Program-made: the position numbers and the translations under genes | Part shown: in pieces, positions 3,782 to 36,555 of the stretch | How the letters are laid out: the number at the start of each line of letters is the position of its first letter | Numbering within the stretch: position 1 is the stretch's first letter | DNA from: a virus | DNA length: 40,561 bases | Reading direction: 5' to 3' (one strand) | UHGV virus genome: UHGV-0150809 | The notes under the pieces: generated by a model | What the model saw: the letters and a program-made list of their open reading frames with translations, nothing else | Told to the model about the DNA's origin: nothing | Database searches by the model: none

Positions 3782-3862
3782 TAATTTGTTACCTCGGTCT
3801 GTTACCGTTGAGGTAATGATTATGCGTATTTGGTTTGATGTCAATAGATATGAGTTAAAAAA

Positions 3863-3877
3863 ATTACCCATAAGGTA
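3863..3877. promoter_or_regulatory. Operator-like palindrome TTACCCATAAGGTAA at the leftward early promoter (OL-like)
   Basis: Perfect TTACC-N5-GGTAA inverted repeat between the repressor gene end and the first leftward early ORF. Confidence 0.45.
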
Positions 3878-3888
3878 ATCTTGATGGC

Positions 3889-3914
3889 AATAAAAAAGCC
3901 GCCATGAGGCGGCT
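3889..3914 (-). terminator. Rho-independent terminator downstream of the repressor gene
   Basis: On the minus strand a GCCGCC-tcat-GGCGGC hairpin followed by a T-run; approximate coordinates. Confidence 0.45.
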
Positions 3915-3935
3915 TACTTGCTGAAAACTATAGTT

Positions 3936-4520
3936 TTATTGTTTATTTTTTTCGTTCTGGTTGATGACAAATTCAATGTAACTTTCGATCTTTGCTTTCT
4001 CGGTTTCGGGTAACAATGCGTAGCGCGAGCGGTCATAGTTGATGGTCGCAGGGTCGTGCGGGTGAATCAGTAATTCATAGCCGTGACGCCCGAATGCGGA
4101 TGCAACATTCTCCAGGGTGGAAATGGAAACGCTGACTTCATTGTTTAACAGGCGGCTGATTGTCACCTGGGCGACGCCGGATGCGCGGTGAAGTTTTCCT
4201 TGTGTTGAAAGGTCGCGGCTTTCGCTCATCCAGCGTTCCAGGTTGTGAGCCGCCAGCTGACCAATGTCGCTTGGTCCGACAGGCTGAAAACCCTCCTGAG
4301 AAAGCGAGCGATCGATATCAAGCCAGTTACGTGGTTTATTGGCGGCAGCTTCAATTTTTCGCGCAACCTGGTCGCCGATAACCTTCTTGCCAAGAGCCCA
4401 GCGGTTTACCAGATTTGCCTGAGTTCCAAGTTTTTCTGCCATCCGCGTCTGAACACCATTGAATTCACGGTCGATCAAGTCGTTGAGATTTTGCCTGCGG
4501 ACGTCCTGGATACTTTTCAT
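3936..4520 (-). CDS. Phage repressor (CI-like) with two tandem HTH domains and no S24/LexA-like autopeptidase domain
   Basis: 194 aa; N-terminal HTH (GVQTRMAEKLGTQANLVNRWALGKK) and second HTH (ASGVAQVTISRLLNNE); no Ala-Gly/Ser-Lys peptidase motifs; divergent from the cro-like gene with an operator cluster between. Confidence 0.7.
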   Translation of the reverse strand: MKSIQDVRRQNLNDLIDREFNGVQTRMAEKLGTQANLVNRWALGKKVIGDQVARKIEAAANKPRNWLDIDRSLSQEGFQPVGPSDIGQLAAHNLERWMSESRDLSTQGKLHRASGVAQVTISRLLNNEVSVSISTLENVASAFGRHGYELLIHPHDPATINYDRSRYALLPETEKAKIESYIEFVINQNEKNKQ

Positions 4521-4575
4521 TTTCTGGAAAATCGTCTCATATATGAATCAGTAGATGATTCAATTTAAAGCAATA

Positions 4576-4638
4576 TTACCCAACAGGTAAATGCACCTCA
4601 TAGGTAACTATCCTTGATTTTTGTTACCTTATGGGTGA
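4576..4638. promoter_or_regulatory. Tripartite operator cluster between repressor and cro (OR-like): 4576-4590 TTACCCAACAGGTAA, 4593-4607 GCACCTCATAGGTAA, 4624-4638 TTACCTTATGGGTGA
   Basis: Three adjacent copies of the palindrome seen directly in the divergent intergenic region; a TTGATT -35-like hexamer at 4614-4619 places the rightward promoter over the third site. Confidence 0.5.
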
Positions 4639-4674
4639 ATATTTATTATCTGAAATAAATATCAGGCAATAGCT

Positions 4675-4905
4675 ATGAGCGATAACGGACATTTCGATTT
4701 CAAAAAGCACTGGCTTGCACTTACTCCGGATGAGCGTGAAGCCTTCGCACAGGAAGCCGGAACGACGAGTCACTATATCCAGACTCACTTAACAGGTAAG
4801 CGCAAAATGCCAGGTAAAGTATTGATGAATGGGCTTTTTAAAGCCTGTAAAACAAGACAATGGCTGCGCTCAAAAGCAGAACTGGCATACTTCTTCTACT
4901 CATGA
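4675..4905 (+). CDS. Cro-like / YdaS-like HTH regulator
   Basis: 76 aa, divergent from the repressor; HTH-like segment LTPDEREAFAQEAGTTSHYIQTHLTGKR. Confidence 0.6.
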   Translation: MSDNGHFDFKKHWLALTPDEREAFAQEAGTTSHYIQTHLTGKRKMPGKVLMNGLFKACKTRQWLRSKAELAYFFYS

Positions 4906-4927
4906 TATCCAGCTACAACCCTCTGTA

Positions 4928-4950
4928 GACCGCCACCCGGCGGTCTTTTC
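4928..4950 (+). terminator. Rho-independent terminator after cro (tR1-like)
   Basis: GACCGCC-accc-GGCGGTC hairpin followed by TTTTC. Confidence 0.55.
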
Positions 4951-5055
4951 ATATCTATTCGTACCTCAAAGGTAATAAAAAACCAAATCTGGTTGATCTT
5001 TTTTTTGTGTCAGCACAAAATAACCGTAATCCCAATACTAATAACAGGGCTTACC

Positions 5056-13299: not shown

Positions 13300-13722
13300 T
13301 TAGAAGGTTATTTTATCGAATGCGGCGTTGATTGCCTTGGCGTCCTGCTCAGCACCAACCACATCAAGTAAAGATCTTTTACTAAGCACTTCAGCCAGGC
13401 ATTGTAACTTCATGTTGTATAAGTTTTCGCGCATGTAATCATCATCACTTTTTTCTTTGGCGTATACAGAGCGAGAAATATCAAACACATCGCCTTTTTC
13501 CATTTCAGAACGTTGTGCTGTTATCCAGTCATGGAACGTAACGCTAGTACCATGGTCTTCGCTAAGAGTTAACCCGGTCAGTCCCTCACTCTGAATTACT
13601 TCGTAATGCATTTCATTACCAGCAAAAACGCCATAAAAAACGCAGTCTTCAGCCTGAACGATACGAGAATATTTTAATGGCCATTCATTTAGATACTTAG
13701 CCAACATATCAATTGTCTTCAT
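13300..13722 (-). CDS. Hypothetical moron protein (140 aa), inverted inside the late operon
   Basis: Opposite strand to the flanking late genes; AAGGTGAGA RBS; visibly AT-richer than neighbours; no recognisable motif. Confidence 0.5.
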   Translation of the reverse strand: MKTIDMLAKYLNEWPLKYSRIVQAEDCVFYGVFAGNEMHYEVIQSEGLTGLTLSEDHGTSVTFHDWITAQRSEMEKGDVFDISRSVYAKEKSDDDYMRENLYNMKLQCLAEVLSKRSLLDVVGAEQDAKAINAAFDKITF

Positions 13723-13920
13723 AATCTCACCTTAAAAAAATGCCCGGCGAACCGGGCGAACTGGAAGCAATGAGTTATGCCTTCCGTGGCTGTACTGGTT
13801 TACAGCATGAAGTCATCGCAATGGCGTCCTGCTGTAAAAAGGGCGGTGATAGTCCTTCAAGGGAAACCATCACCGCCAAGCCCCTGGAACTTCTGGCATC
13901 ACGGTCCTTAGGCGTGATTC

Positions 13921-23617: not shown

Positions 23618-26131
23618 ATGCCAGTTGTACCAACAACATCGGGCCGTCAGGTTCAGAGCAGAGGGATTTCGACGCAGGGATTCTCATCGTTTCAGACACC
23701 AAATGTCGGTGATGTACTTGGCGATGTTGCAGAGCAATATGCAGGTATTATTGCGCAGGCAAAACAGCGCGCGAATGTTGCTATGGCTCAGGATGCTTCT
23801 CTTAGCTTAAGCCAGATAAGCAGCGATCTGCTGAATAACCCTGAAACAGGTTTGCTTAACCTGAAAGGGAAAAATGCTATTGGAAAAGGTCAGGAGTATA
23901 CGCAGCAGTTTGATGCTCAGGTCGAACAACTGGCTATGTCGCTGCCGGATGAACAGGCTCGTAATGCTTTCATGCAGCAGGCGCAGCAGCAGCGTATTCA
24001 GTTCACTACGCAGGCCGGGCGGCACGAGATAGGGCAAATAAATGCCTACGAAGAAGGTCAGTTTCAGGCTACGCTGCTGAACAATGGTAAAAATGCCGCA
24101 GCATTGTATGGCGACAACGCCGCATACGTATTGGCTAATAAGCAAACTTTCCAGCAAATTGAGGATTACGGCATTGCGCATGGCTGGAGCGACGAGCAAA
24201 TCCAGGCCAAGAAAATCGAGTTTAAAGAGAAGGTTGCTGATGCCGCATTGTCCCAGTGGTCGGCAAACAATGCGACCGCATTCATCCAAAGTAATGGCGA
24301 GTTAAGTGATACTGCTGCTGGAGCTCGCCGTGCTGTAGCCGATAGTGACTCTTCCGATCGTGCCCGTGGCATACGCAACAATAACCCAGGAAATCTCGAA
24401 TACAGCAAAACTAATCCGTGGGTAGGCCAGACCGGTGATGATGGTCGATTTGCTAAATTCGAAACACCTGAACACGGGATTCGTGCATTAGGGCGGAACC
24501 TGATGTCGTATCATAGGCAGGGTATTGATACCGTCAGCGAGATAATTAATCGCTGGGCACCGCCCACTGATAAAAATGACACTATGTCGTATATCAAAGC
24601 AGTGTGCGAACAACTTGGCGTTTCTGCTGATGAGCCTCTCGATGCATCAAATCCTGATACCCTGAAGGCGCTTTGTGCAGCCATTATCCATCATGAGAAC
24701 GGTAGCCATCCATACAGTGATCAGCAGTTAACTGCTGGTGTCAGTGCAGCACTTGGTTTATCAACAATTCCAACCAACACCAAACGCTATACCGGTAATG
24801 CAGCATTCGATGCGGCATCTTCTGAGGCGCAGGCAAGTTTTATGCGACAGGCGGATCAACTGCGTCGGCAGCAGCAGGATGAATATAAAACGATGATTGA
24901 CAGCCAGGTTCGCGATGCGACAGCTGCGTATATGCGTGGCGTTGAATTTCCTAACCCACCTGGTGAGGATGATTTTATTGCAGCTTATGGAGTCAGAGAA
25001 GGAAACCTGCGATATACCGAGTTTAAGAATACGCAGATCGCCGGACAGTATATAGGCTCTTTCCGCAACATGCCGACAAGCAGCATTACAGCATATGTTG
25101 AGCAATTACGCCCGGATACTGGTGAGACAGGGGAGGGTTATGCGTCTCGCGCAGCTCTTTATGACAACGTTGTTTCGGCTGCAAATCAGGTGATAAAGCA
25201 GCGGCAGTCGGATCCTGTGCAGTTCTCTCTTGCCTCCGGACAGGCAAAGCCTATCGACATGAGCAATAAGGATAACTTTGGACATAGCGTTGCCTTGCGT
25301 GCCGCTCAGGTCAGTGACCTTGCTAAGTCATATGGCACTCCACTGACGTTCTTTTCCAAAGACGAGGCCAATCAGATCGGTGTTTTCTTTCGTGATGCTC
25401 CAGTTTCTCAACAGGCAGCATATCTCGATACCATCAGGCAGAGCACTGGTGGTGGGCAGGTGTATATGTCAGCACTACAGCAGATCAGTGCCAACGCTCC
25501 ATCTGCTGCCGTTGCCGGGATACTGATGGACAAGCCTGGTGGTATTTTGGCAGAAAAAAACTGGTTTAATCCGGATGTTTCCGTGTCTCCTGAAACCGCT
25601 GCGCAGACAATTCTTGCTGGCGCGGCGGCTCGTAAAGGTACTGATGATGCGAAAGGTATTCCGATGCCTAAAGATGCTGATCTTCGCCTTGAGTTTTCTG
25701 ACATGGTGAAGGATGCATTTGCTGGTGATGCTCAGGGGGCATCAATGGCATACGAGATCGCAAAGGACTATTACGCTGGTGTGATGGCGAAAAAAGGCGT
25801 GATATCAGGCGAAATTGACACTGATATCTGGAAACAGGCTGTTAACGTAGCTACAGGTGGCGTGCATGACTATAACGGAATGGGGAATGTCCTTTTGCCG
25901 TGGGGAATGTCTGCAGAGCAATTCGATAAGCAGGTTAATCAGGCTTGGAATGAACAAGTTGTCGGCACCGGGATAAAAACACCGCCTGGTCAGTATGGTT
26001 TGCAAAGTTACGGCGATAGTCAGTACCTGGTGAAACTTGGTACTGGTTATCTGCTGAAAGATGATGGTTCTCCTGTTGTTCTTGATCTGACACAGAAGCG
26101 TCAGAGATTCTCCGGAGATATTCCGCAATGA
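23618..26131 (+). CDS. Internal core/ejection protein (gp15 position) with a possible cell-wall-active insert
   Basis: 837 aa; segment RGIRNNNPGNLEYSKTNPWVGQ...FAKFETPEHGIRA is enzyme-like; assigned by order. Confidence 0.5.
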   Translation: MPVVPTTSGRQVQSRGISTQGFSSFQTPNVGDVLGDVAEQYAGIIAQAKQRANVAMAQDASLSLSQISSDLLNNPETGLLNLKGKNAIGKGQEYTQQFDAQVEQLAMSLPDEQARNAFMQQAQQQRIQFTTQAGRHEIGQINAYEEGQFQATLLNNGKNAAALYGDNAAYVLANKQTFQQIEDYGIAHGWSDEQIQAKKIEFKEKVADAALSQWSANNATAFIQSNGELSDTAAGARRAVADSDSSDRARGIRNNNPGNLEYSKTNPWVGQTGDDGRFAKFETPEHGIRALGRNLMSYHRQGIDTVSEIINRWAPPTDKNDTMSYIKAVCEQLGVSADEPLDASNPDTLKALCAAIIHHENGSHPYSDQQLTAGVSAALGLSTIPTNTKRYTGNAAFDAASSEAQASFMRQADQLRRQQQDEYKTMIDSQVRDATAAYMRGVEFPNPPGEDDFIAAYGVREGNLRYTEFKNTQIAGQYIGSFRNMPTSSITAYVEQLRPDTGETGEGYASRAALYDNVVSAANQVIKQRQSDPVQFSLASGQAKPIDMSNKDNFGHSVALRAAQVSDLAKSYGTPLTFFSKDEANQIGVFFRDAPVSQQAAYLDTIRQSTGGGQVYMSALQQISANAPSAAVAGILMDKPGGILAEKNWFNPDVSVSPETAAQTILAGAAARKGTDDAKGIPMPKDADLRLEFSDMVKDAFAGDAQGASMAYEIAKDYYAGVMAKKGVISGEIDTDIWKQAVNVATGGVHDYNGMGNVLLPWGMSAEQFDKQVNQAWNEQVVGTGIKTPPGQYGLQSYGDSQYLVKLGTGYLLKDDGSPVVLDLTQKRQRFSGDIPQ

Positions 26132-27930
26132 GTTACTTTGGCCTTAATCCAGTAAACCAGAATCAGCAACTTGACGAAGCAGCATCAAATCCAGCGGGCT
26201 TTAACAGCGATGTTGGTTTTTTCGACAATGCTGTAGGAGCGGCATTGTCTGGTTTGTACTCCGGGCTGGTGGCAAAGCCAGATCAGTTGCTATGGGCTGG
26301 GATGGATAAAATCGTATCCCCGATTGCTCAGTTTATTAACGAAAACACCTCGCTCAATGATACTTCAGTTTCATACATTGCCGAGCAGAGAAAACTAGCA
26401 GAGCAGCAGGTTAAGCGGCTGACTCCTGATGCCGCGACAACCGGAACCGCCGGGCAGGTTCTTTATGGGTTGTTCGATATGGGCGGGCAGGCTGTTGTCG
26501 GTACAACGCTCGGTGGTCCTGTCGGAGGTGCAGCGGCGGTAACTTCGCTACAGGGTTTTTCTGAGTTTGAACGGCTGATAGCACAGGGTGTTGATTTCAG
26601 GACGGCGCAGGAAGCGGGATTAGTGCAGGGCATTACTGCTGGTGCCGGAACACTGATCCCTATGAGCCTCGGGTTACGTGCTGGTGGTGCGCTGGCGGAA
26701 GGTGTGGCGGCTCAGCTTGCGCGGACGGGTGAGAGTTCAGTGCGACGCGCCGCAGCAACAGCAGTACGTGCAACGCCAGATATTGCCTATGCCGCAGGTA
26801 CAAATATTGCGTTCGGTATGGCACAGCGTGGGCTTACTGCAAAAACGCTTCGTGATGGTGGCTATAGCGAAATGGCTAACCAGTATGATGTGTTGGATCG
26901 ACAGGCAATTGCTATTGATGCTGTTCTTGGGGTGGCGTTTGGTGGTGTCGGCAGATTTATTAACTCTCGCGGCGAGTCTACAAGCGCACCAAATTTTTCA
27001 CCAGTTGATATCGATGCTGCACTGGCGGCGAATGCCGCTCATCATGCTGAAATTGATATTGCTCCTGGCGTGCCGATCAACGTGCTTTCGCGTAATTCTC
27101 ACATTCAGGCTCTGCGAAAAGCCATGTCTGATGTTAGCCAGGGGAGACCTGTAGACGTTGCCAGCATTGTTGAGTCTGCATCTTTCAGTGAAATCCCTGG
27201 GCACAAGAGTCTGCTTTCTCAGGCAGTTAATGAGGCTCTGTCATCTGTAGATGATGGAAAAACGGCGCGCGCTATAGAAAATCGGTTGCTTGAAGAACAG
27301 GCCGCGCAGCTTTTGTCGCGTGGCGATAGACAGGTTTACCAGTCTGAAATCGCTAATAGCCAACGAATTATCGACAATCTCACTGAACAGCGCGCACAAA
27401 TTCTTGCAGAAGAGCCAACTGGTAGCGGTAAAGCTTTGTCTCGTGCTCGATCAGATAAACAGGCCAGAATTCGCGATATTGACCAACGAATCCGGCAGGC
27501 ACAAGAACGCCTGGAATTTTCCCGTAACGCGTTGGCACCGCATGAGCCTGGCGGTCAGTTTTTTGAAGCTCGAGCAGAACTGGCACGGAGACAGCAGGCT
27601 GAAAGTGAACTTAATGCTCAGGCTGTTTCATTCTATAAAACAGCAGAGGTCAGGACGCCAGACGAAGTAGCTCCTTTTGAGCCCGGTAAGATATTGCAAC
27701 AGACAGAACAAAAAATGATGGCAGATCCGGCAGGAGATATTGATCTGCGTATAGCTGAAGACTCGCTGCTTGAATCTCCGGACATGATAATCACCGTGCT
27801 GGATGATGATGGTAATCCACAATCGCGCAGTGCGCGTGAAGTACTGGATGAAGCGAACAGGGAAAGTGAGCAGGCAATACAGGATTCCAGCCTGTTTGAT
27901 GTTGCTGTGGCGTGTTTCTTGAGAGGTTAA
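26128..27930 (+). CDS. Internal core/ejection protein
   Basis: 600-aa ORF coupled to the upstream gene; Gly/Ala-rich N-terminus, coiled-coil C-terminus. Confidence 0.5.
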   Translation: MSYFGLNPVNQNQQLDEAASNPAGFNSDVGFFDNAVGAALSGLYSGLVAKPDQLLWAGMDKIVSPIAQFINENTSLNDTSVSYIAEQRKLAEQQVKRLTPDAATTGTAGQVLYGLFDMGGQAVVGTTLGGPVGGAAAVTSLQGFSEFERLIAQGVDFRTAQEAGLVQGITAGAGTLIPMSLGLRAGGALAEGVAAQLARTGESSVRRAAATAVRATPDIAYAAGTNIAFGMAQRGLTAKTLRDGGYSEMANQYDVLDRQAIAIDAVLGVAFGGVGRFINSRGESTSAPNFSPVDIDAALAANAAHHAEIDIAPGVPINVLSRNSHIQALRKAMSDVSQGRPVDVASIVESASFSEIPGHKSLLSQAVNEALSSVDDGKTARAIENRLLEEQAAQLLSRGDRQVYQSEIANSQRIIDNLTEQRAQILAEEPTGSGKALSRARSDKQARIRDIDQRIRQAQERLEFSRNALAPHEPGGQFFEARAELARRQQAESELNAQAVSFYKTAEVRTPDEVAPFEPGKILQQTEQKMMADPAGDIDLRIAEDSLLESPDMIITVLDDDGNPQSRSAREVLDEANRESEQAIQDSSLFDVAVACFLRG

Positions 27931-27935
27931 ATTAA

Positions 27936-30410
27936 ATGAGACAGGAATGTATACAAGCGGTCCAGCAGGCGGCGCAGCGCACGTTAACGGCGCGAGAAAT
28001 ACAGAACATTGAAGACCGCATTTATCGAAATATGCGCTCCATTGCTCGTGATGATCCGATGTCGTGGCGACAACTTTCCGAATCAGAACGGTTGTATCGT
28101 GCAGCACAATTGGCATCTGAAGAATTACAGCGAGAAGCGGCATTAAAGAAACGTCGTGTGGCTCTCACTATAGCCGCACGTCAGAGATTGGATAAATTTA
28201 TCAATAGCTATCAAGGGGCTGATGGGAAACTTGGCGCTCTTAACCGTACTATTGCTTTTAATGCAGACGGTAAATCGAATTTCCTCTCTGTTGAATCCAG
28301 AACAAAAGCCACTCGTGATTATGCATTGAGTCAATTGCAGGAGGCATTTGAAGCAGTTGATCCTCGCTTTTTTGGCCTGTTTGAAGATGAAGCTGGCGTG
28401 CGTGACCTGGTATATGAAATGCGAGGGCAAAATACTGGCAATGCTAAAGCAAGAAAAGGTGCTAAGGCGTGGAGAGAAGTGACAGAGCTACTGCGCCGCC
28501 GGTTTAATGATGCTGGTGGGGACATTGGCTATCTCGAAAACTGGGGGATCCCTCAACATCATTCTATGGAAAAGGTTGGGGCGGTATCAAAGGATAAGTG
28601 GGTTAGCGATGTTATAGGTAAGCTGGATCGCAAATATTATACCCGAGTCGATGGACAACTGATGAACGATGCCGAGTTGTCTGCATTTCTTGGAGAGGCT
28701 TATAACACGATCGCTACTGGTGGGCTGAATAAGCTTACTGATACCGGAATGCGAATTTCCGGCGCACGTGCTAACCGGGGTAATGCATCACGACAGATAC
28801 ATTTCAAAGATGCAGATTCCTATCTGCAATATCAGCAACTTTATGGCGATCGCTCTCTATGGGAAATCATGGTCGGTCACCTGGAAGGTATCAGTAAAGA
28901 TATTGCACTGGTGGAAACATATGGCCCAAACCCCGATCATGTTTTCCGCTCTCTTCTTGATCAGGTGAAGGCAGAAACGGCAACAGCTAACCCGAGTAAA
29001 ACCGGTAAAGTCGAGCGGCTGGCGAACAACACAGAGAATCTGTACAACTTTATTTCCGGAAAGACACAGCCTGTAGCGAATCCGCACATCGCGCGCTGGT
29101 CTGACAATATCCGCAACTGGCTGGTTGCCAGCCGACTAGGATCCGCGTTGCTGTCATCGTTCTCTGATCTTGGAACCATGTATCTGTCTGCGAAGGTGAC
29201 CAACCTTCCAATGAACCAGTTATTCCGCAACCAGCTTGAAGCTATGGACCCAACGAACCGTACTGAGCTTGCGCGGGCGCGCCGCGCTGGTCTGGCGATG
29301 GAATCTCTACTTGGCAGTGTTAACCGCTGGGCAATGGATAATATGGGGCCGTCTGTGTCTCGTTGGGCGGCAACGGCGGTAATGCGTGCCAGTGGGCTTA
29401 CAGCATGGTCAGATGCGCACAAGCGCGCCTATGGCGTAACAATGATGGGAAGCCTGGGAGAGGTAGTGTCACGGACACCAGACCTTCGTAGCCTCGATGA
29501 CTCTGATTTTCGTATCCTGAAAAGCAAAGGGATTACTGAAACAGACTGGAGCGTATGGAAGCTGGCGCAACAGGAGGACTGGGGGAACGGCAATAATACG
29601 ATGCTGACACCGGAAAGCATTATGCGTATCCCTGATTCAGCAGTTAAACATCTTGGTGAGCCTGAACGCGTGAAATTTGAGGCAATGCGTAAACTTCTCG
29701 GTGCCGTAACTGAAGAAGTTGATATGGCTGTTATTACACCGGGAGCACGTGAGCAACTGATAACCGGTTCTGGTATTCAGCGTGGAACATGGAAAGGTGA
29801 ATTAACGAGAAGTGTTTTCCTGTTTAAATCGTTCCCTATCTCGGTAGTTATGCGTCACTGGTCACGCGCTATGGGTATGCCGTCTGCTGGTGGGCGTGCG
29901 GCATATATTGCGACGTTTATTGCCAGTACGACCATTCTTGGCGCTTTGTCGCAGCAACTTAACGACCTTGCGTCTGGTCGTAATCCTCGCGAGATGACAG
30001 GAGAAGATGCTGCTAAATTTTGGCTTGGTGCTCTACTGAAAGGTGGTGGTCTTGGCCTTTACGGTGACTTTTTATTGTCAGATCACACTAGGTACGGAAG
30101 CGGCGCGCTGGCGTCGATGCTTGGCCCGGTAGCTGGTCTGGTTGATGACGTAGTGAAGATTGCTCAGGGCATACCGTTAAATGCTGTGGAAGGGAAGAGT
30201 GAGCAGACTGGTGGTGATCTGGTGAAGCTGGGGAAAGGTTTGATGCCAGGTGCGAATCTCTGGTACTTAAAGGCGGCTCTCGATCACATGATCTTTAACC
30301 AGATGCAGGAGTATTTTTCACCAGGCTATTTGCGTAAAATGGAGCAACGTTCGAAGAAAGAGTTTAACCAGACATACTGGTGGCGACCACAGGATGTCAC
30401 TCCGCAATAA
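27936..30410 (+). CDS. Internal core/ejection protein (gp16-like)
   Basis: 824 aa, last large gene of the structural block; assigned by order and size. Confidence 0.5.
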   Translation: MRQECIQAVQQAAQRTLTAREIQNIEDRIYRNMRSIARDDPMSWRQLSESERLYRAAQLASEELQREAALKKRRVALTIAARQRLDKFINSYQGADGKLGALNRTIAFNADGKSNFLSVESRTKATRDYALSQLQEAFEAVDPRFFGLFEDEAGVRDLVYEMRGQNTGNAKARKGAKAWREVTELLRRRFNDAGGDIGYLENWGIPQHHSMEKVGAVSKDKWVSDVIGKLDRKYYTRVDGQLMNDAELSAFLGEAYNTIATGGLNKLTDTGMRISGARANRGNASRQIHFKDADSYLQYQQLYGDRSLWEIMVGHLEGISKDIALVETYGPNPDHVFRSLLDQVKAETATANPSKTGKVERLANNTENLYNFISGKTQPVANPHIARWSDNIRNWLVASRLGSALLSSFSDLGTMYLSAKVTNLPMNQLFRNQLEAMDPTNRTELARARRAGLAMESLLGSVNRWAMDNMGPSVSRWAATAVMRASGLTAWSDAHKRAYGVTMMGSLGEVVSRTPDLRSLDDSDFRILKSKGITETDWSVWKLAQQEDWGNGNNTMLTPESIMRIPDSAVKHLGEPERVKFEAMRKLLGAVTEEVDMAVITPGAREQLITGSGIQRGTWKGELTRSVFLFKSFPISVVMRHWSRAMGMPSAGGRAAYIATFIASTTILGALSQQLNDLASGRNPREMTGEDAAKFWLGALLKGGGLGLYGDFLLSDHTRYGSGALASMLGPVAGLVDDVVKIAQGIPLNAVEGKSEQTGGDLVKLGKGLMPGANLWYLKAALDHMIFNQMQEYFSPGYLRKMEQRSKKEFNQTYWWRPQDVTPQ

Positions 30411-30665: not shown

Positions 30666-31211
30666 TTATTCCTTCCATTTATCAGAAAAAAGATCTTCTT
30701 CTAAAGGCATTGGTTCTGTTTTTGTTTTCTCAAAGAATTGATAACTGATAGTGATTGCTGCCTCTTTAAACTCTTCTTGCTCAGTTATGTTGTGGGCATC
30801 TGCGTCAACAAAAAACATAACCAGCGCATCACGATTGTGATTTACCGAATAAACTAAAAAGCAATCACTTGTTGGTATGCATTTTACTTGCACAGACGCT
30901 ATATTTTTCCATGCATCCCAAGATGATTTTTTACCAGTGTGTTTTTTATCACTATCTTCTGGAATATAGTCTTGGTTATCGACATGAGTATGCCTGACAT
31001 TTAGTTTAAGCATTTCTGTCGGACGAGCAAATGCAGCATCTTTACCAAGAGATGGATGGTATCCCGTTTTCCAATACTGGGTAAAGGCATCAGATACTTT
31101 CTTCAGCTCAAGATCAGATGCACAAAGGGCCGAGAAATTTTGCGTATGCAATACTCGACCCTTATATCTGACAATTTGATTTTTATCATTCTGCGACGCA
31201 GACGAACTCAT
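30666..31211 (-). CDS. Hypothetical moron protein (181 aa), possible YafO-family toxin-like C-terminal region
   Basis: ORF track 30666..31238; preferred start MSSSASQ at 31211 after AAGGAAA; AT-rich; the pattern LKLNVRHTHV...TSDCFLVY...ADAHN parallels a recalled YafO pattern (RVAHIHL...LVY...PHK); tentative. Confidence 0.45.
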   Translation of the reverse strand: MSSSASQNDKNQIVRYKGRVLHTQNFSALCASDLELKKVSDAFTQYWKTGYHPSLGKDAAFARPTEMLKLNVRHTHVDNQDYIPEDSDKKHTGKKSSWDAWKNIASVQVKCIPTSDCFLVYSVNHNRDALVMFFVDADAHNITEQEEFKEAAITISYQFFEKTKTEPMPLEEDLFSDKWKE

Positions 31212-31365
31212 AATTTTCCTTATTGTTACGAGAATCAAAGAAAGCGCGGGATACGCGACTTGCGTGATCTTTTGTCATAGTAACTTTTACGCACTCTACG
31301 CTTCCATTGAAAGAACGTCTTGCGGCAGCTTGCGCTCTACGCATCTGCAATTTTTCGTTTCGCAT
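31186..31365 (-). CDS. Small basic 59-aa ORF upstream of and overlapping the 181-aa moron gene (not in ORF track)
   Basis: Hand-translated MRNEKLQMRRAQAAARRSFNGSVECVKVTMTKDHASRVSRAFFDSRNNKENYEFVCVAE; GAGGTAA RBS 6 nt upstream of the ATG; overlaps the downstream start by 26 nt. Confidence 0.3.
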   Translation of the reverse strand: MRNEKLQMRRAQAAARRSFNGSVECVKVTMTKDHASRVSRAFFDSRNNKENYEFVCVAE

Positions 31366-31425: not shown

Positions 31426-31467
31426 TTACCCTTGAGGTAATAGTACGCTATTCACCAACAGTCTGCA
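31426..31467 (-). promoter_or_regulatory. Candidate sigma70 promoter (-35 TTGCAG, 17-bp spacer, -10 TACTAT on the minus strand) with operator TTACCCTTGAGGTAA (31426-31440) just downstream of the -10
   Basis: Hexamers and spacing read on the reverse complement; operator is a perfect copy of the recurring palindrome. Confidence 0.4.
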
Positions 31468-31513: not shown

Positions 31514-32200
31514 TCAGAAGAATCCTGCTTTGTCGTTGATGTACTCCGCGTGCGTCTGGATATCACGCAGGCATTTGCTCACACCGACGATGTAGCAGAA
31601 CATGGTGGTCAGCTCTGCCGCCGCGCCCGATACGTCGTGCCCGTCTTCCTGTAACTGGTTCAGCAGATTCATCAGCAGTGAGTTCTCCGTCAGGCCGAGA
31701 ACACCAGACGGCGAGTGAATCAGGCTGCGGTAGCCGGGCTTCAGCGGGGCACTGTAGGTTTTGTTCTCTATCTTCATCGCCTGCATTACTGCTGACGCCG
31801 TGGCGTTGGCTACCTGGTCGGCAACCATCTTTATGCGTTCTTCCTGCGGGAGCGAGTTTTTAATGTAACTTCCGGTGCGGCGGATCTGAGGAAGAACCTC
31901 ACCTGTAACCCATTTACGAAAGCGGTAGGGGATAGTGCCTGGTGTCACCGCATCGCGGCAGCGGAGGATCAGTGTGTAGAGGCCTGACTCGTTGATAATA
32001 TTGGTTTCGCCTTGACGGCCTAAGTTAAATTTAGCCCTTTCATCATCATCAAGAGATTTTATTGACATAGTGGGGTTTGTCAGTTGAAGAGCTTTAATAA
32101 CGTCTTTGGCAACAAACCAAGGATTTCCATCAATAACAATGGCTCGAATGGTTGCCTCTGATTCAAAATGAAAAACAGATGGGGTTACGTTAGCAGTCAT
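31514..32200 (-). CDS. Antirepressor, Bro-N domain family
   Basis: Preferred start MTANVTPSVFHFESE at 32200 after AAAGGTGA; N-terminal ATIRAIVIDGNPWFVAKDVIKAL matches the Bro-N/KilA-N antirepressor signature; ORF track extension to 32353 lacks an RBS and is likely leader. Confidence 0.7.
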   Translation of the reverse strand: MTANVTPSVFHFESEATIRAIVIDGNPWFVAKDVIKALQLTNPTMSIKSLDDDERAKFNLGRQGETNIINESGLYTLILRCRDAVTPGTIPYRFRKWVTGEVLPQIRRTGSYIKNSLPQEERIKMVADQVANATASAVMQAMKIENKTYSAPLKPGYRSLIHSPSGVLGLTENSLLMNLLNQLQEDGHDVSGAAAELTTMFCYIVGVSKCLRDIQTHAEYINDKAGFF

Positions 32201-32466
32201 AGTGATCACCTTTGTAGTTAGGTTAATCACCACTACCGACGCCAATCGGTTGGTGGTGAACTGTGCAGGGTTGGCGTAACCGGCTACAAAGGACCCGGCG
32301 CACCTTTCGGTGCCCCCACACAGCCCACCATAGAATAGGTGCGCTTTACACATAAAAAAACCGCTTATGCGGCATATGTGCCTCTGTAGTAACCCGGGAC
32401 GCCAATCCCGGCACTGGCAAAATCCAGTGCCCGATTACTATGGCACAAGAGGAGTGCGATGTAAAT

Positions 32467-32574
32467 TTACCGCAAAGGTAATGATAAACGCGAAGAAATA
32501 TTAAAATCAACCGTATTTGGTTGATTGCGTTTAACGCTTGATCACCTGAAAGCAAGATATTACCTTTAAGGTAA
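32467..32574. promoter_or_regulatory. Two operator-like palindromes (32467-32481 TTACCGCAAAGGTAA; 32560-32574 TTACCTTTAAGGTAA) in the divergent region between the antirepressor and the zinc-ribbon gene
   Basis: Perfect motif copies; a weaker copy TCACCTGAAAGCAAG lies between them. Confidence 0.45.
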
Positions 32575-32594
32575 TGTTATTGTGAGGAAAAGCA

Positions 32595-33323
32595 ATGGAA
32601 GTTTTCTGGATAGTTGTTGGTGTGGTTGCGGTGATTATTTACGTTATCAACCAGAACAAGACTAAGATCTCTGATCGTACGGTCGTTAATCATAACAAAA
32701 CGATAAAGACCGAAGATGGGGAGATAACGATTAATCGTACACAGGTGATAGAACACACCTCTACTCAGTTTCAAAAAACTGGAGGTAATGCGCCTAATAT
32801 TTCCGCACCTCCTGCTTATGATAGTGCGGTAATCCAGACATATTATAAACAGCAGGAGTTAGCAAAAGAGAGGCAACTGATTCAGCCAAAGCCGTTTACA
32901 GCTGAGCTTCCACCTGGAGTGTCAACGCGTCCGGCATATCATGGAAGATTCCCTGGTGATGACATATCGTCTCAGTCATCTAAAAAAGCACCTCAGGCAG
33001 TATCAGAGCCAGCAAGAATACCTTCTGCATCGCCGCCAAAAGAAGAATCAGCTAACAGAGTTTCAAGTGGTAGCAAGCAGTGCTTGCGATGCAGAATAAA
33101 CCTTCCATATGAAAAATTCAGGAAATCGTCAAAAAATCCAGATGGATTGACTAAGTGGTGTGCAAGGTGTCTCGATGGCCCAAAGAATACACGCCATATG
33201 AAGTGGTGCCCAATTTGTAATGTCCGCAGAAAACGAACCAGCTTTTACCCTAATAATCAAAATGCGGACGGCTTAATGGCATGGTGCAAAACGTGCTGGG
33301 ATGAGCACAAAGCGAAACGATAG
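32595..33323 (+). CDS. Membrane-anchored protein with tandem C-terminal zinc ribbons
   Basis: 242 aa; N-terminal TM helix (VFWIVVGVVAVIIYVI), Pro/Ser-rich linker, then two repeats of C-x2-C ... DGL-x2-WC-x2-C (CLRCRINLPYEKFRKSSKNPDGLTKWCARC; CPICNVRRKRTSFYPNNQNADGLMAWCKTC). Confidence 0.5.
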   Translation: MEVFWIVVGVVAVIIYVINQNKTKISDRTVVNHNKTIKTEDGEITINRTQVIEHTSTQFQKTGGNAPNISAPPAYDSAVIQTYYKQQELAKERQLIQPKPFTAELPPGVSTRPAYHGRFPGDDISSQSSKKAPQAVSEPARIPSASPPKEESANRVSSGSKQCLRCRINLPYEKFRKSSKNPDGLTKWCARCLDGPKNTRHMKWCPICNVRRKRTSFYPNNQNADGLMAWCKTCWDEHKAKR

Positions 33324-33345
33324 GCCGCTCTTGCGGCCTTTAAAT

Positions 33346-33603
33346 TTACCGGGTTTGTTTTCGTAATTGTTCGGCACAATAGTCGAGATGTGTTTGCAGA
33401 TCCTGCATAGACATCTGTGAGCTGGTGACGTAGTTAATCAGTGCAGTCAGTTCGGCAAGTGGGCCATCGACATTAAATCCATCCTTATCGAGATCCCGGA
33501 GTAATTTCATCAAGTGCGATCCCTCCACCAGTGACCTGACGCCTCCCGGCGTGTGAATCCTTTCGGTAAATCCGTCTTCCAGTGGATAGTGATACTGCTG
33601 CAT
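33346..33603 (-). CDS. Short antirepressor-like protein, paralog of the C-terminal domain of the Bro-N antirepressor; candidate SOS-induced antirepressor
   Basis: Preferred start MQQYHY at 33603 after GGAGAAG; RIHTPGGVRSLVEGSHLMKLLRDLDKDGFNVDGPLAELTALINYV aligns by eye with SLIHSPSGVLGLTENSLLMNLLNQLQEDGHDVSGAAAELTTMFCYI of the 31514-32200 product; LexA box 22 bp upstream. Confidence 0.55.
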   Translation of the reverse strand: MQQYHYPLEDGFTERIHTPGGVRSLVEGSHLMKLLRDLDKDGFNVDGPLAELTALINYVTSSQMSMQDLQTHLDYCAEQLRKQTR

Positions 33604-33624: not shown

Positions 33625-33640
33625 CTGTATAAATATACAG
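33625..33640. promoter_or_regulatory. LexA (SOS) box CTGTATAAATATACAG
   Basis: Perfect CTGT-N8-ACAG with AT-rich spacer, overlapping a TATATT -10-like hexamer for the leftward gene starting at 33603. Confidence 0.6.
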
Positions 33641-33679
33641 TATCAAATAATTTGTTTGCTATCCAGCACGTTTTGCAAA

Positions 33680-33694
33680 TCACCTGAAAGGTAA
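33680..33694. promoter_or_regulatory. Operator-like palindrome TCACCTGAAAGGTAA
   Basis: One-mismatch copy of the motif about 40 bp from the LexA box, between the small antirepressor and the tail-fibre gene. Confidence 0.4.
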
Positions 33695-33798
33695 TATCTT
33701 TTCGTATTTATGGGTTATCTATCCATATATGGTTTTTCAGGTAATAGAATAACCAGATATGCGGCGCAACGGGTGCTGCGACTATCTGGAGATTTAAC

Positions 33799-36555
33799 AT
33801 GACGGTCTCAACCGAAGTTGACCACAACGAATACACTGGTAACGGCGCTACGACATCATTTCCGTATACCTTCCGTATTTTCAAAAAATCCGACCTGGTT
33901 GTTCAGGTGTCTGACCTGAACGGGAACGTAACAGAATTGGTTCTGGATACCGGTTATACGGTAACTGGGGCGGGCACTTATAGTGGCGGTTCTGTTGTTC
34001 TTCCGTCTCCGCTTGCTGCTGGATGGCGAATTACGATAGATCGTGTGCTTGATGTAGTGCAGGAGACAGACCTTCGCAATCAGGGTAAATTTTTCCCCGA
34101 AGTGCATGAAGATGCTTTTGACTACCTGACGATGCTGATCCAGCAATGTTTTGGGTGGTTCAGACGTGCATTGATGAAACCATCTTTGCTTGCAAAATAT
34201 TACGATGCAAAGCAAAACAGAATATCTAACCTTGCTGATCCATCACTTGAGCAGGACGCTGTAAATAATCGCTCAATGCGTAATTATGTCGATGCTGCAA
34301 TCGCCGGAGTTATTGGTGGTTTTGGTTGGTTTATTCAGTATGGTTCTGGAGCAGTATACCGAACGTTCCAGGATAAGATGCGGGATAACGTTAACGCTCT
34401 TGATTTTGTTCCGTTTGAGCAAAGATATGCTGCATTAAATTTTGAAGTTGATGCGTCTGAATGGTTAATTAATGCGATAAATTCTGGTGCAAGTGTCGTT
34501 AGAATACCTGCAGGTAAATGGATGATTTCTAAGAATATAGATGTGCCTCCTGGAGTTTCATTAATTGGTGATGGAATTGATTACTGGGATACATATAGAC
34601 CAGCGCCTGAAAGATTATTAAAAAGTTGGAGTAAAGGAACCCATCTTGTATTTACTGGTGATGGAGAAAAAAACAAATATTTTTTTAACATCTCTAATGA
34701 AAGACCAGTTAAAATTGTTGAAGGGATATCTTGTAAGTTCACTGAGTTTACAAATGAAGATTCTGTAGGTGTTACTCCTGCTACACCAAAAGCCATGAGC
34801 GTAGCTGTTAGTATCAACAGGGCATCACAGTTACGCAATCTGAGAATAATGGTAAGTAAAAATGGTATTGAAGGATACAATAACCCTGATTCTTATTCAT
34901 TGGGTGATAACTGGGATATAGGGTTGCATGTATACGATAGCTGTGATTCAGTTATTGATAACGTACAGATTGTCGGCTATTGGAGGGTAAAAGGACTACT
35001 ACTGACAGAAAATGACGGGAGCCTTTCAATGAAGGGAAATCCTGAAAAAACGCACTTTAATAACGTTTATGTCCAGTCAGGGATCGCGATAAGGAATAGC
35101 CCTCAGATTGATCTTGTAAGTAATACTGAAAGCTCAGTGACATTTAAACATAAAAAGTCGATGAGAATAACTTCAGTTAAACAGTTTAAAATTGCTGGCA
35201 GTGAATCAGTATATACGTATTCAGATGCATCATTTGATGGAGCTAACATCACACTATCTGGTATTTCTCCTGAAATACAAGGTACAATAAGTGTAATCAG
35301 GTTTCCGTCAATTGGTAATAATTTTAGCGGGACTGTTTTTGAGAATACAGTAGCCACTACTCTTGATCATACATCAGGTAAGCCATCAGAATACTTTGGC
35401 CTTCCTGCATCCTTTGCATTAGAGGTTGATGGTTTCCCTGTTCGTAATTTAAGGTTTGATAAATTCAAAGCTCAAACAACATTTGATAAAGGAAATTGCA
35501 TTTTTGGTGATTGCCGTGATGTTAAAATAACATCATCTGAGTTTGAAAATGGAATTATGATTGCGTATAACCAGACCGAGACTCAGGGTTATACAGGAAA
35601 TCTTAGATTTTTTGCTTCTGATCTTCAGAGCAGCGTTAACACAAGTGAGTTTAAACCAAGAGACGCATTTGTAGACAATAGACAAATAAAAACGGAGTTT
35701 ACTGATGGTTCGTTCATTATAAAGAACTGGAGGCCTACAGATACAAAAATACAATGGTCGTCTGGAGCAGATGCTATTGTTCTTAGAGAGTCACCTGACG
35801 AACAATCAGACGGAAATATTTACGGGTATCACATTGATGGTAAAAGATGGATTAATGTTAGTGGATATAACAAAGATATAAATATTTCATCAAGAAACTT
35901 AAGCGTAAAAAACCATGGTGATGACTCTGCAGTTATTAATATATTCGGCGACTCTGGAAATATTGCCATTAAAGGTAATTTTTCACCAATTATTGATAAC
36001 AGCAAATCTCTTGGTGCACCATCATTTAGATGGGCACAGGTTTATTCTGCGAACGGTTCGATAAACACATCAGATGGTAGAGAAAAAAGTGAACCGATTA
36101 GTACAAGTGAGCTCAGCTTGTATATGTCTCGTGGTTATGAAGGTGATGCAATTCTGGATGCATGGGGAGATATCAGGATTGTAGCTTTTCGCTGGCTTGA
36201 TGCCGTCAGGGAAAAGGGAGATGGTGCCCGCTGGCATTTTGGTGTTATAGCACAACAAGTGAGAGACACTTTCCTCGCGCATGGGATTGATGGAACCAGA
36301 TTTGGCCTTCTCTGTTACGATGAATGGGATGATAAATACGCGCCAGTGATGGCGGTAAGGATGATCACTAAAGTTGTGGATGGCGTCGAAATTGAGATGG
36401 AAGAAGAATACGAAACAGAAGAGCGAACTCTGGTTTGCAAGGCTGGAAATAGGTGGGGTATCCGTACTGACCAGTGTTTATGGCTTGAGTCAGCTTATTT
36501 GCGTAGAAGAATCGAAAAAATAGAATCACGTCTTGCAATGCTTGAAAGTAGCTAA
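33799..36555 (+). CDS. Tail fibre/tailspike: T7 gp17-like N-terminal adaptor, AT-rich central receptor-binding/enzymatic region, C-terminal S74 intramolecular chaperone domain
   Basis: 918 aa; N-terminus NEYTGNGATTSFPYTFRIFKKSDLVV parallels the T7 fibre N-terminus; C-terminus contains the SDGREKS cleavage-site-like motif and following chaperone domain; central part visibly AT-richer. Confidence 0.75.
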   Translation: MTVSTEVDHNEYTGNGATTSFPYTFRIFKKSDLVVQVSDLNGNVTELVLDTGYTVTGAGTYSGGSVVLPSPLAAGWRITIDRVLDVVQETDLRNQGKFFPEVHEDAFDYLTMLIQQCFGWFRRALMKPSLLAKYYDAKQNRISNLADPSLEQDAVNNRSMRNYVDAAIAGVIGGFGWFIQYGSGAVYRTFQDKMRDNVNALDFVPFEQRYAALNFEVDASEWLINAINSGASVVRIPAGKWMISKNIDVPPGVSLIGDGIDYWDTYRPAPERLLKSWSKGTHLVFTGDGEKNKYFFNISNERPVKIVEGISCKFTEFTNEDSVGVTPATPKAMSVAVSINRASQLRNLRIMVSKNGIEGYNNPDSYSLGDNWDIGLHVYDSCDSVIDNVQIVGYWRVKGLLLTENDGSLSMKGNPEKTHFNNVYVQSGIAIRNSPQIDLVSNTESSVTFKHKKSMRITSVKQFKIAGSESVYTYSDASFDGANITLSGISPEIQGTISVIRFPSIGNNFSGTVFENTVATTLDHTSGKPSEYFGLPASFALEVDGFPVRNLRFDKFKAQTTFDKGNCIFGDCRDVKITSSEFENGIMIAYNQTETQGYTGNLRFFASDLQSSVNTSEFKPRDAFVDNRQIKTEFTDGSFIIKNWRPTDTKIQWSSGADAIVLRESPDEQSDGNIYGYHIDGKRWINVSGYNKDINISSRNLSVKNHGDDSAVINIFGDSGNIAIKGNFSPIIDNSKSLGAPSFRWAQVYSANGSINTSDGREKSEPISTSELSLYMSRGYEGDAILDAWGDIRIVAFRWLDAVREKGDGARWHFGVIAQQVRDTFLAHGIDGTRFGLLCYDEWDDKYAPVMAVRMITKVVDGVEIEMEEEYETEERTLVCKAGNRWGIRTDQCLWLESAYLRRRIEKIESRLAMLESS

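Follow-up and report, generated by a model that had tools for sequence, protein, structure and literature searches.

A membrane-anchored tandem zinc-finger protein linked to prophage immunity is a candidate phage-exclusion or defence factor

The virus genome UHGV-0150809, whose whole analysed stretch of 40,561 nucleotides is called the window below, is an epsilon15/phiV10-like (Uetakevirus) prophage. At positions 32595 to 33323 it carries an open reading frame (ORF) for a protein that combines one N-terminal transmembrane (TM) helix with two C-terminal zinc modules. The protein, conserved and bitopic in the membrane, carries a basic tandem zinc finger on a tether; its gene travels as an accessory mobile cassette that is consistently wired to the immunity repressor, and our sequence analyses mark the protein as a promising candidate for a phage-exclusion or defence factor of a new kind. 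The gene, its predicted control elements and the parts of its product are as follows.

32467..32481: operator copy TTACCGCAAAGGTAA, immediately downstream of the ant-leader promoter
32510-32481, - strand: promoter of the leader of ant, the divergent Bro-N gene, TTGATT-18-TATCAT
32538..32566, + strand: inferred sigma-70 promoter of the zinc-finger gene, with -35 TTGATC (32538-32543), a 17-nt spacer and -10 TACCTT (32561-32566)
32559..32575: perfect 17-bp palindrome ATTACCTTTAAGGTAAT with operator copy TTACCTTTAAGGTAA at 32560, covering the -10 and lying 20 nt before the ATG
32584..32587, + strand: Shine-Dalgarno sequence GAGG, 7 nt 5' of the ATG
32595..33323, + strand: ORF of the membrane-anchored tandem zinc-finger protein, a PHROG 6762 member; ATG start, 242 amino acids (aa)
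32601..32654, + strand: TM helix, residues 3-20, with an AlphaFold2 predicted local distance difference test (pLDDT) score of ~90 and conserved M1, E2, G9 and N21
32658..32768, + strand: conserved juxtamembrane segment, residues 22-58, motif T-x-I...T-x-DGE...R
32769..33065, + strand: Pro/Ser/Ala/Gln-rich, disordered linker of variable length, residues 59-157
33081..33170, + strand: zinc module 1, C163-x2-C166 ... DGL-x2-W-C189-x2-C192
33207..33296, + strand: zinc module 2, C205-x2-C208 ... DGL-x2-W-C231-x2-C234
33322..33349, + strand: intrinsic terminator with a 7-bp stem (6 G-C pairs) and a T-rich tail, the hairpin (33322-33339) overlapping the stop codon of the ORF

The ORF is a real, constrained gene. 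The 242-aa frame stands as an original prediction, made from the letters of the window, had described it, and it is under purifying selection. None of 35 distinct E. coli-type alleles contains an internal stop, and the ratio of nonsynonymous to synonymous polymorphism (pN/pS), calculated from the 52 ungapped of 55 E. coli-type copies (53 viral-contig loci and two records of phage TL-2011b), is 0.06 in the zinc domain, 0.35 in the TM helix plus juxtamembrane segment and 0.83 in the linker. Across an alignment of 28 homologues, the eight Cys of the zinc modules are invariant or nearly so and the TM helix and juxtamembrane stretch are also kept, while the linker varies in sequence and length through many indels. 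The sequence conservation of the TM helix (M1, E2, G9 and N21) exceeds what a plain anchor would need.

The protein was modeled by AlphaFold2 with the 28-sequence alignment. In the model the TM helix is followed by a β-hairpin at low confidence (residues 26-55) and by the linker, in which pLDDT falls below 50, a short helix is predicted at residues 77-94 and confident structure is absent from residues 95-157; residues 158-242 form a compact C-terminal domain with pLDDT above 90. The single N-terminal TM helix and the Pro/Ser-rich linker of the original prediction are thus retained, Pro, Ser, Ala and Gln making up 43-49% of residues 59-157. The claim of two nearly identical modules is too strong: both share C-x2-C-x8-F-x5-N-x-DGL-x2-WC-x2-C and align with a score of 69 (22.9 ± 4.9 for shuffled sequences, of which 0 of 2000 reached 69), but only 12 of 37 positions are identical. 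The C-terminal 85 residues are strongly basic, with 20 Lys/Arg vs 6 Asp/Glu, a net charge of +14 and an isoelectric point of 9.9. Because only Met-Glu precedes the helix and K22, K24 and R28 come after it, the positive-inside rule predicts an N-out/C-in topology, so that everything after the TM helix would be cytoplasmic, a location that fits the eight Cys, by which the C4 modules probably bind zinc. A signal peptide or lipoprotein signal was considered and rejected, as a basic n-region is absent, the hydrophobic segment contains no Cys and the positive charges follow that segment.

At full length the protein matches PHROG 6762, annotated as "unknown function" (E=2.2e-150, residues 1-242 of 242 covered). 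Foldseek found no match with E<1 for the full-length model in the PDB, and NCBIfam gave no meaningful match to the 242-aa protein. The original prediction had not recognized the architecture as a known phage function, and no source names one; the fold, however, is recognizable. The zinc domain is, by sequence and profile comparison, a non-catalytic Stc1-like C4 finger of a type that usually stands beside DNA-acting or DNA-binding domains. Its best Pfam match is Stc1 (PF12898; 21.2 bits, E=4.4e-4), below the gathering threshold of 24.8 bits, and multi-repeat relatives found with the domain profile pass that threshold at 30-39 bits. The PHROG matches of the module are to the non-catalytic N-terminal parts of families annotated as "endonuclease VII," "HNH endonuclease," "endonuclease" and "DNA primase." Against the PDB, the domain profile matches the HNH enzyme PacI at its N-terminal zinc site (E=0.08), and against BFVD it yields 37 matches at E<=1e-3, mostly phage and giant-virus proteins of the HNH, beta-beta-alpha-Me, EndoVII and "Stc1 domain" kinds. 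By sequence and structure matches, one module, C-x2-C ... (F) ... DG-x3-(W)C-x2-C, recurs in Stc1-like fingers and in the N-terminal fingers of viral HNH/EndoVII/beta-beta-alpha-Me nucleases such as PacI and Hpy99I. Unlike in those nucleases, the fingers here sit on a membrane anchor, and an enzyme domain or a catalytic His-Me/HNH/EndoVII core is lacking: no HNH or Endonuclease_7 catalytic core was matched in Pfam at E<=10, and inspection of the alignment found no invariant His in the modules. The absence of the catalytic motif led us to reject the view that the protein is itself a nuclease.

Since the zinc module elsewhere flanks such enzymes, the gene could also be taken for a degenerate or inactive HNH/EndoVII homing-endonuclease remnant with no present function. 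This is contradicted by the strong purifying selection on the zinc domain (pN/pS 0.06), by the preservation of the whole protein in Gamma- and Betaproteobacteria, with TM helix, fingers and juxtamembrane segment all kept at 25-60% identity, and by the conservation of the gene's own promoter and terminator, and we regard it as extremely improbable.

The family is widespread. A word-indexed protein search returned 33 homologue clusters with 38-96% identity, every one named "hypothetical," from Escherichia, Superficieibacter, Enterobacter, Citrobacter, Salmonella, Serratia, Providencia, Pectobacterium and Buttiauxella. With the domain profile, 3099 proteins at E<=1e-3 were found among 1.84 billion representatives. 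About 45 of the top 150 clusters (50% identity) have the TM plus tandem-finger architecture, and these extend the family within Enterobacterales and to Vibrionaceae, Acinetobacter, Oceanobacter and Kingella; the remaining clusters either are soluble and have 3-12 modules in tandem or fuse the module to HNH, superfamily 1 helicase, DnaJ, KilA-N, Bro-N plus Vsr-like or HEAT-repeat domains. Twenty-eight close and 45 distant members carry the same signature: Met-Glu, a hydrophobic helix and Asn, then a Thr/Ile/Lys-rich juxtamembrane motif, then eight C-terminal Cys. When the N-terminal 64 residues were the sole query, only truncated copies of the same gene were found, and no fusion of the TM and juxtamembrane part to other C-terminal domains.

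The second strand of evidence concerns control of the gene. The palindrome TTACC-N5-GGTAA occurs in 10 exact copies in the window, where ~0.04 would be expected as estimated from the window length and the 10 specified bases; with up to two mismatches there are 37 copies, vs 11.4 ± 3.1 in shuffled sequences. Seven operator copies flank the HTH_3 repressor gene cI (3936-4520, - strand) in an OL/OR layout. On the OL side, TTGACA-17-AATCAT is directly followed by an operator before the leftward operon; on the OR side, three sites (4576-4638) lie between cI and a divergent cro-like ORF. Because the palindromes cluster in this way around the repressor gene, they are almost certainly immunity operators of the CI/Cro type. 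Copies are found at 3802-4975, 6907, 6969, 11109, 14320, 31426, 32467, 32560 and 33680. Single or paired palindromes thus precede other units as well, including late-region ones (before 11063, before the ORF at 14646, and between the p24-like gene and the tailspike gene described below), and this dispersal resembles a P1-C1-type operator network.

Two of the copies (32467 and 32560) fall between the zinc-finger ORF and the divergent Bro-N gene, as originally predicted. In the copy at 32560, the -10 hexamer TACCTT of the zinc-finger gene is the left half of the 17-bp palindrome. A strict consensus promoter scan did not call the promoter at 32538..32566, because TACCTT fits only three of six positions; we infer the promoter because its layout is conserved. 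Seven lineages with otherwise different flanks have TTGAnn, 16-17 nt and TACCTT or TAACCT inside the palindrome, 32-43 nt before the ATG and usually right after the terminator of the upstream gene; the Providencia palindrome differs and reads TTAACC-N5-GGTTAA. In most epsilon15-like lineages, therefore, the gene's promoter would lie under the immunity operator. With a repressor site over its -10, the gene is predicted to be an independent transcription unit, silent or held low in the lysogen and released from repression upon infection or induction. Another perfect palindrome, TGTGACATGTCACA, is found just upstream of the -35, ~70-85 nt before the ATG of the homologue, in the Superficieibacter/Enterobacter/Citrobacter/Salmonella-type loci L071-L077. 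It may be a site for another regulator; as a CRP site it was rejected for wrong spacing (a 4-nt spacer).

The gene is an accessory cassette that carries its own promoter, operator and terminator. Phage TL-2011b has the same region, gene included, at 96% identity. In phiV10 the gene is absent, and 874 bp of the window (32472..33345) stand where phiV10 has 41 bp. Relative to phiV10, each junction of the cassette coincides exactly with a copy of an 11-bp direct repeat, TAAATTTACCG (32462-32472 and 33341-33351). A 22-nt inverted repeat (32554-32575 and 33679-33700, 91% complementary) encloses the zinc-finger gene and the neighboring p24-like gene. Both the direct and the inverted repeats are possible traces of cassette insertion or inversion. 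Among complete E. coli genomes, 129 of 5426 (2.4%) have the gene, always chromosomal and always full-length.

In other Enterobacterales the gene is kept in a variable island flanked by the ejection-protein genes and the tailspike gene, usually downstream of and co-directional with p24-like and Bro-N/KilA-N genes and sometimes after HicAB; the E. coli cassette is inverted relative to this order. In Providencia and in locus L079 the island consists of a p24-like gene and the zinc-finger gene alone. Distant members with 25-40% identity occupy a different place: in at least eight lambdoid lineages they start, on the same strand, 15-25 bp after the gene for a CI-type (HTH plus Peptidase_S24) repressor (Kingella negevensis, Photobacterium phosphoreum, genomes L101 and L102 and the viral-contig lineages L103-109, L111-118, L121 and L123-125). 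L097 and L098 have a terminator after the pair of cI and the zinc-finger gene, in L100 and L110 the gene abuts cI in convergent orientation, and the Edwardsiella copy belongs to the nin region, with pRha and an RloB/AAA pair next to it. One family thus shows opposite regulatory logic, the lambdoid copies (L097, L098, L101, L102 and L103-L125) being co-transcribed with cI and so predicted to be on in lysogens, and the epsilon15-like copies having a CI/Cro operator over the -10. The original prediction of a regulatory or exclusion role gains support from both arrangements, that is, from promoters predicted to lie under the operator in most epsilon15-like lineages and from distant relatives right after cI.

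Both positions have well-known occupants. In lambda, the slot directly after cI holds rexA-rexB, and distant relatives of the zinc-finger gene fill this same slot, after cI and before a terminator. A cytoplasmic sensor paired with a membrane element is a further likeness to Rex, a conceptual one; RexA/RexB differ in being two proteins, with a polytopic RexB, no homology to them was found in PADLOC, and the gene of the window (32595) is not directly downstream of cI but 28 kb from it. In the podophage P22, sieA is located in the ejection-gene/ant/tailspike island, so that in both cases an accessory prophage inner-membrane protein is encoded between the ejection-protein genes and the ant/tailspike region. 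SieA is an inner-membrane prophage accessory protein whose gene has its own promoter (PMC10883804). The zinc-finger gene differs from sieA in bearing a repressor operator over its -10, and sequence similarity between the two products was not found; SieA has three TM segments and neither zinc fingers nor a cytoplasmic domain, and it is expressed in the lysogen. Exclusion and abortive-infection functions have classically been traced to genes beside a prophage repressor or in an ant/sie island, and few of these genes are understood. To our knowledge, none of the known genes in such slots has the TM plus tandem-finger build.

We tentatively favor, at somewhat less than an even chance, that the zinc-finger protein, linked to immunity and tethered to the membrane, binds nucleic acid and acts in conflicts between phages, by exclusion or by abortive infection. 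Nucleic-acid binding is the likeliest activity of the zinc domain, as its module usually stands beside DNA-acting or DNA-binding domains. The protein would span the inner membrane once, with a 2-residue periplasmic N-terminus, the TM helix, the juxtamembrane segment and a ~100-residue flexible cytoplasmic tether that ends in the basic tandem C4 finger at the cytoplasmic face, where the fingers would bind nucleic acid or a DNA-associated phage protein. A competing genome might then be trapped, or blocked from leaving the ejection conduit, which would be superinfection exclusion from inside. Alternatively, ligand-driven clustering of the conserved TM helices might damage the membrane and cause a single-polypeptide, Rex-like abortive infection. 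It is possible, though doubtful, that the family represents a class of one-polypeptide anti-phage factors linked to the immunity operon, whose membrane-tethered fingers sense or capture incoming foreign DNA or its escort proteins and then block entry from inside or collapse the membrane through TM clustering.

Several points weigh against an exclusion or defence function. Homology to a known superinfection exclusion (Sie), abortive infection (Abi) or defence protein was not found: PADLOC-DB v2 gave no defence-system match (best, TniQ at E=1.8), and the only similarity to a Sie family in PHROG was to phrog_8545 (E=0.57), over the hydrophobic N-terminus. Hardly any of the protein would lie in the periplasm, in contrast to most injection blockers. 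With the operator over its -10, the gene is predicted to be repressed in the lysogen, the opposite of what is expected of a prophage-expressed exclusion gene and of the relatives co-transcribed with cI. Nucleic-acid binding is not assured, as the tandem fingers of fission yeast Stc1 bind a protein, Ago1, and not DNA, and acidic lipids could be another ligand of the basic domain. Speculatively, a protein needed right after infection, when both regulatory arrangements would be active, would reconcile them.

Such early expression also bears on two other readings. The phi29 protein p16.7, an early replication organizer of a lytic phage, and the N-out bitopic anchor ZipA, which binds FtsZ, each have an N-terminal TM helix, a spacer or flexible linker and a C-terminal cytoplasmic binding domain. 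They share this layout with the zinc-finger protein, and the likeness is by layout alone, the domains being unrelated. The protein could, like p16.7, in which the C-terminal domain binds nucleic acid, be an early lytic organizer by which the DNA or RNA of the phage itself is held at the membrane to be replicated, transcribed or packaged; the operator predicts derepression of the gene at infection or induction, along with PL, PR and Pant, and the domain is basic (net +14). We consider this quite unlikely, since the gene is accessory and patchy, occurring in 2.4% of complete E. coli genomes and missing from close relatives, and since the lambdoid relatives co-transcribed with cI would be on in a lysogen, where no phage replication takes place. 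The other reading is host takeover or counter-defence: early in infection, the protein would recruit to the membrane a nuclease, a restriction enzyme or another DNA-associated protein of the host, or would protect phage DNA as it enters. Early expression is predicted in both genetic contexts, from an operator-bearing promoter that is free before CI accumulates and by PRE/PRM-type transcription with cI, and one PHROG that shares the module, phrog_5558, is labeled "Lar-like restriction alleviation." This label rests on the shared zinc module only, as residues 201-241 align to profile positions 7-47 of 130 and Pfam Lar_restr_allev does not match the 242-aa protein. A candidate target is lacking, and continuous expression with cI in lysogens would be unusual for an anti-defence gene, so that counter-defence appears decidedly improbable.

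Taken singly, the parts are known already, namely the Stc1-like finger, the N-out membrane anchor and immunity-linked prophage passengers; what is new is their combination and its synteny. No entry for the family was found in Pfam, NCBIfam or PADLOC, and literature searches on the Stc1 domain in phages, on zinc or transmembrane superinfection exclusion and on repressor-downstream genes found no paper on it. If the protein is a defence or exclusion factor, it would show a nuclease-borrowed zinc finger used at a membrane, and if it acts as a single polypeptide, prophages of Gamma- and Betaproteobacteria would share a functional analogue of RexA/RexB made of one protein. The family occurs in phage TL-2011b, which was isolated from an outbreak strain of enterohemorrhagic E. 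coli O103:H25, and its members are compact (~200-240 aa) and self-contained, hence directly testable by cloning.

The cassette stands among the following genes and RNAs of the window.

26128-27930: a further ejection-protein ORF
27936-30410, + strand: ejection-protein-like gene
30666-31238, - strand: YafO-toxin-like ORF, 190 aa, a marginal Pfam match (25.8 bits; cutoff 25)
31514..32200, - strand: Bro-N Ant gene (Bro-N, 72 bits)
32249-32335, - strand: C4 antisense RNA in the ant leader (Rfam, 79.5 bits; gathering 45)
32354-32430, - strand: isrK-like small RNA in the ant leader (Rfam, 56.7 bits; gathering 50)
33346..33603, - strand: p24-like ORF, 85 aa, a homologue of phiV10 p24 and epsilon15 gp19, 40% identical to the C-terminal domain of Ant
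33799-36555, + strand: tailspike gene

The zinc-finger gene had been placed between two antirepressor genes. On one side this is so, with the divergent Bro-N ant gene; on the other, the 85-aa ORF is a homologue of the Ant C-terminal part and not a full antirepressor. Both RNAs sit in the 395 bp that separate the zinc-finger gene from ant, and an intrinsic terminator (32373-32354) lies within the ant leader. The C4 and isrK-like RNAs indicate that ant is regulated by antisense RNA as in the immI module of P1 (c4 antisense RNA - icd - ant), and they make the island an immI-type secondary immunity region; the zinc-finger gene differs in lying outside the immI operon, as a separate cassette in the opposite orientation. 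A 279-aa ORF call for Ant, extending to 32353, overruns the C4 gene; the first 51 of the codons called are therefore spurious.

At 33625-33640, 22 nt upstream of the p24-like ORF, there is a perfect LexA box, CTGTATAAATATACAG, and full or degenerate LexA boxes are found at the matching place in L011, L072, L073, L077, L003, L004 and L079, which suggests that the 85-aa Ant-C-like ORF is an SOS-controlled small antirepressor. LexA control of the zinc-finger gene itself was rejected, the sole good box nearby being that of the p24-like gene; CTG-N9-CAG upstream of some Serratia-type copies was also rejected as a LexA site for wrong spacing. Within 2 kb the island has three layers of induction control: the small Ant-like gene with its LexA box, the Bro-N Ant under C4 and isrK control, and the CI operators found at every unit. 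The induction-control island of the original prediction proves richer than first described.

These neighbors bear on a further alternative, that the zinc-finger protein modulates the lysis-lysogeny or induction switch by sequestering or presenting at the membrane a component of the immunity circuit, such as CI, Cro, the antirepressor, the LexA-controlled Ant-C-like protein or host RecA/LexA/FtsH-type factors, and so tunes establishment or induction without acting on other phages. Besides the LexA box and the C4 and isrK RNAs next to the gene, the immunity wiring found throughout the family (after cI, or under a CI/Cro operator in the ant island), the minimal Providencia and L079 island of a p24-like and a zinc-finger gene and the protein-binding fingers of yeast Stc1 all agree with it. 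If true, phage immunity circuits would gain a component that is tethered to the membrane. Core switch components are seldom accessory, however, whereas this gene is dispensable within the genus (phiV10 lacks it), its order and orientation relative to ant and p24 vary, and co-variation with a partner has no support in the data; we therefore think it unlikely.

Toxin-antitoxin-type genes share the island with the immunity-linked zinc-finger gene, as seen from the YafO-toxin-like ORF, upstream of which the operator copy at 31426 lies, and from HicA/HicB pairs that adjoin the zinc-finger gene in Superficieibacter (L003) and Pectobacterium (L011). Elsewhere in the window, a match to CTGT-N8-ACAG, CTGTACTGGTTTACAG, is found at 13790-13805 (0.56 expected in the window), ~70 bp upstream of the ORF 13722..13300 (- strand), and may mark a second LexA-controlled gene or be a chance match.

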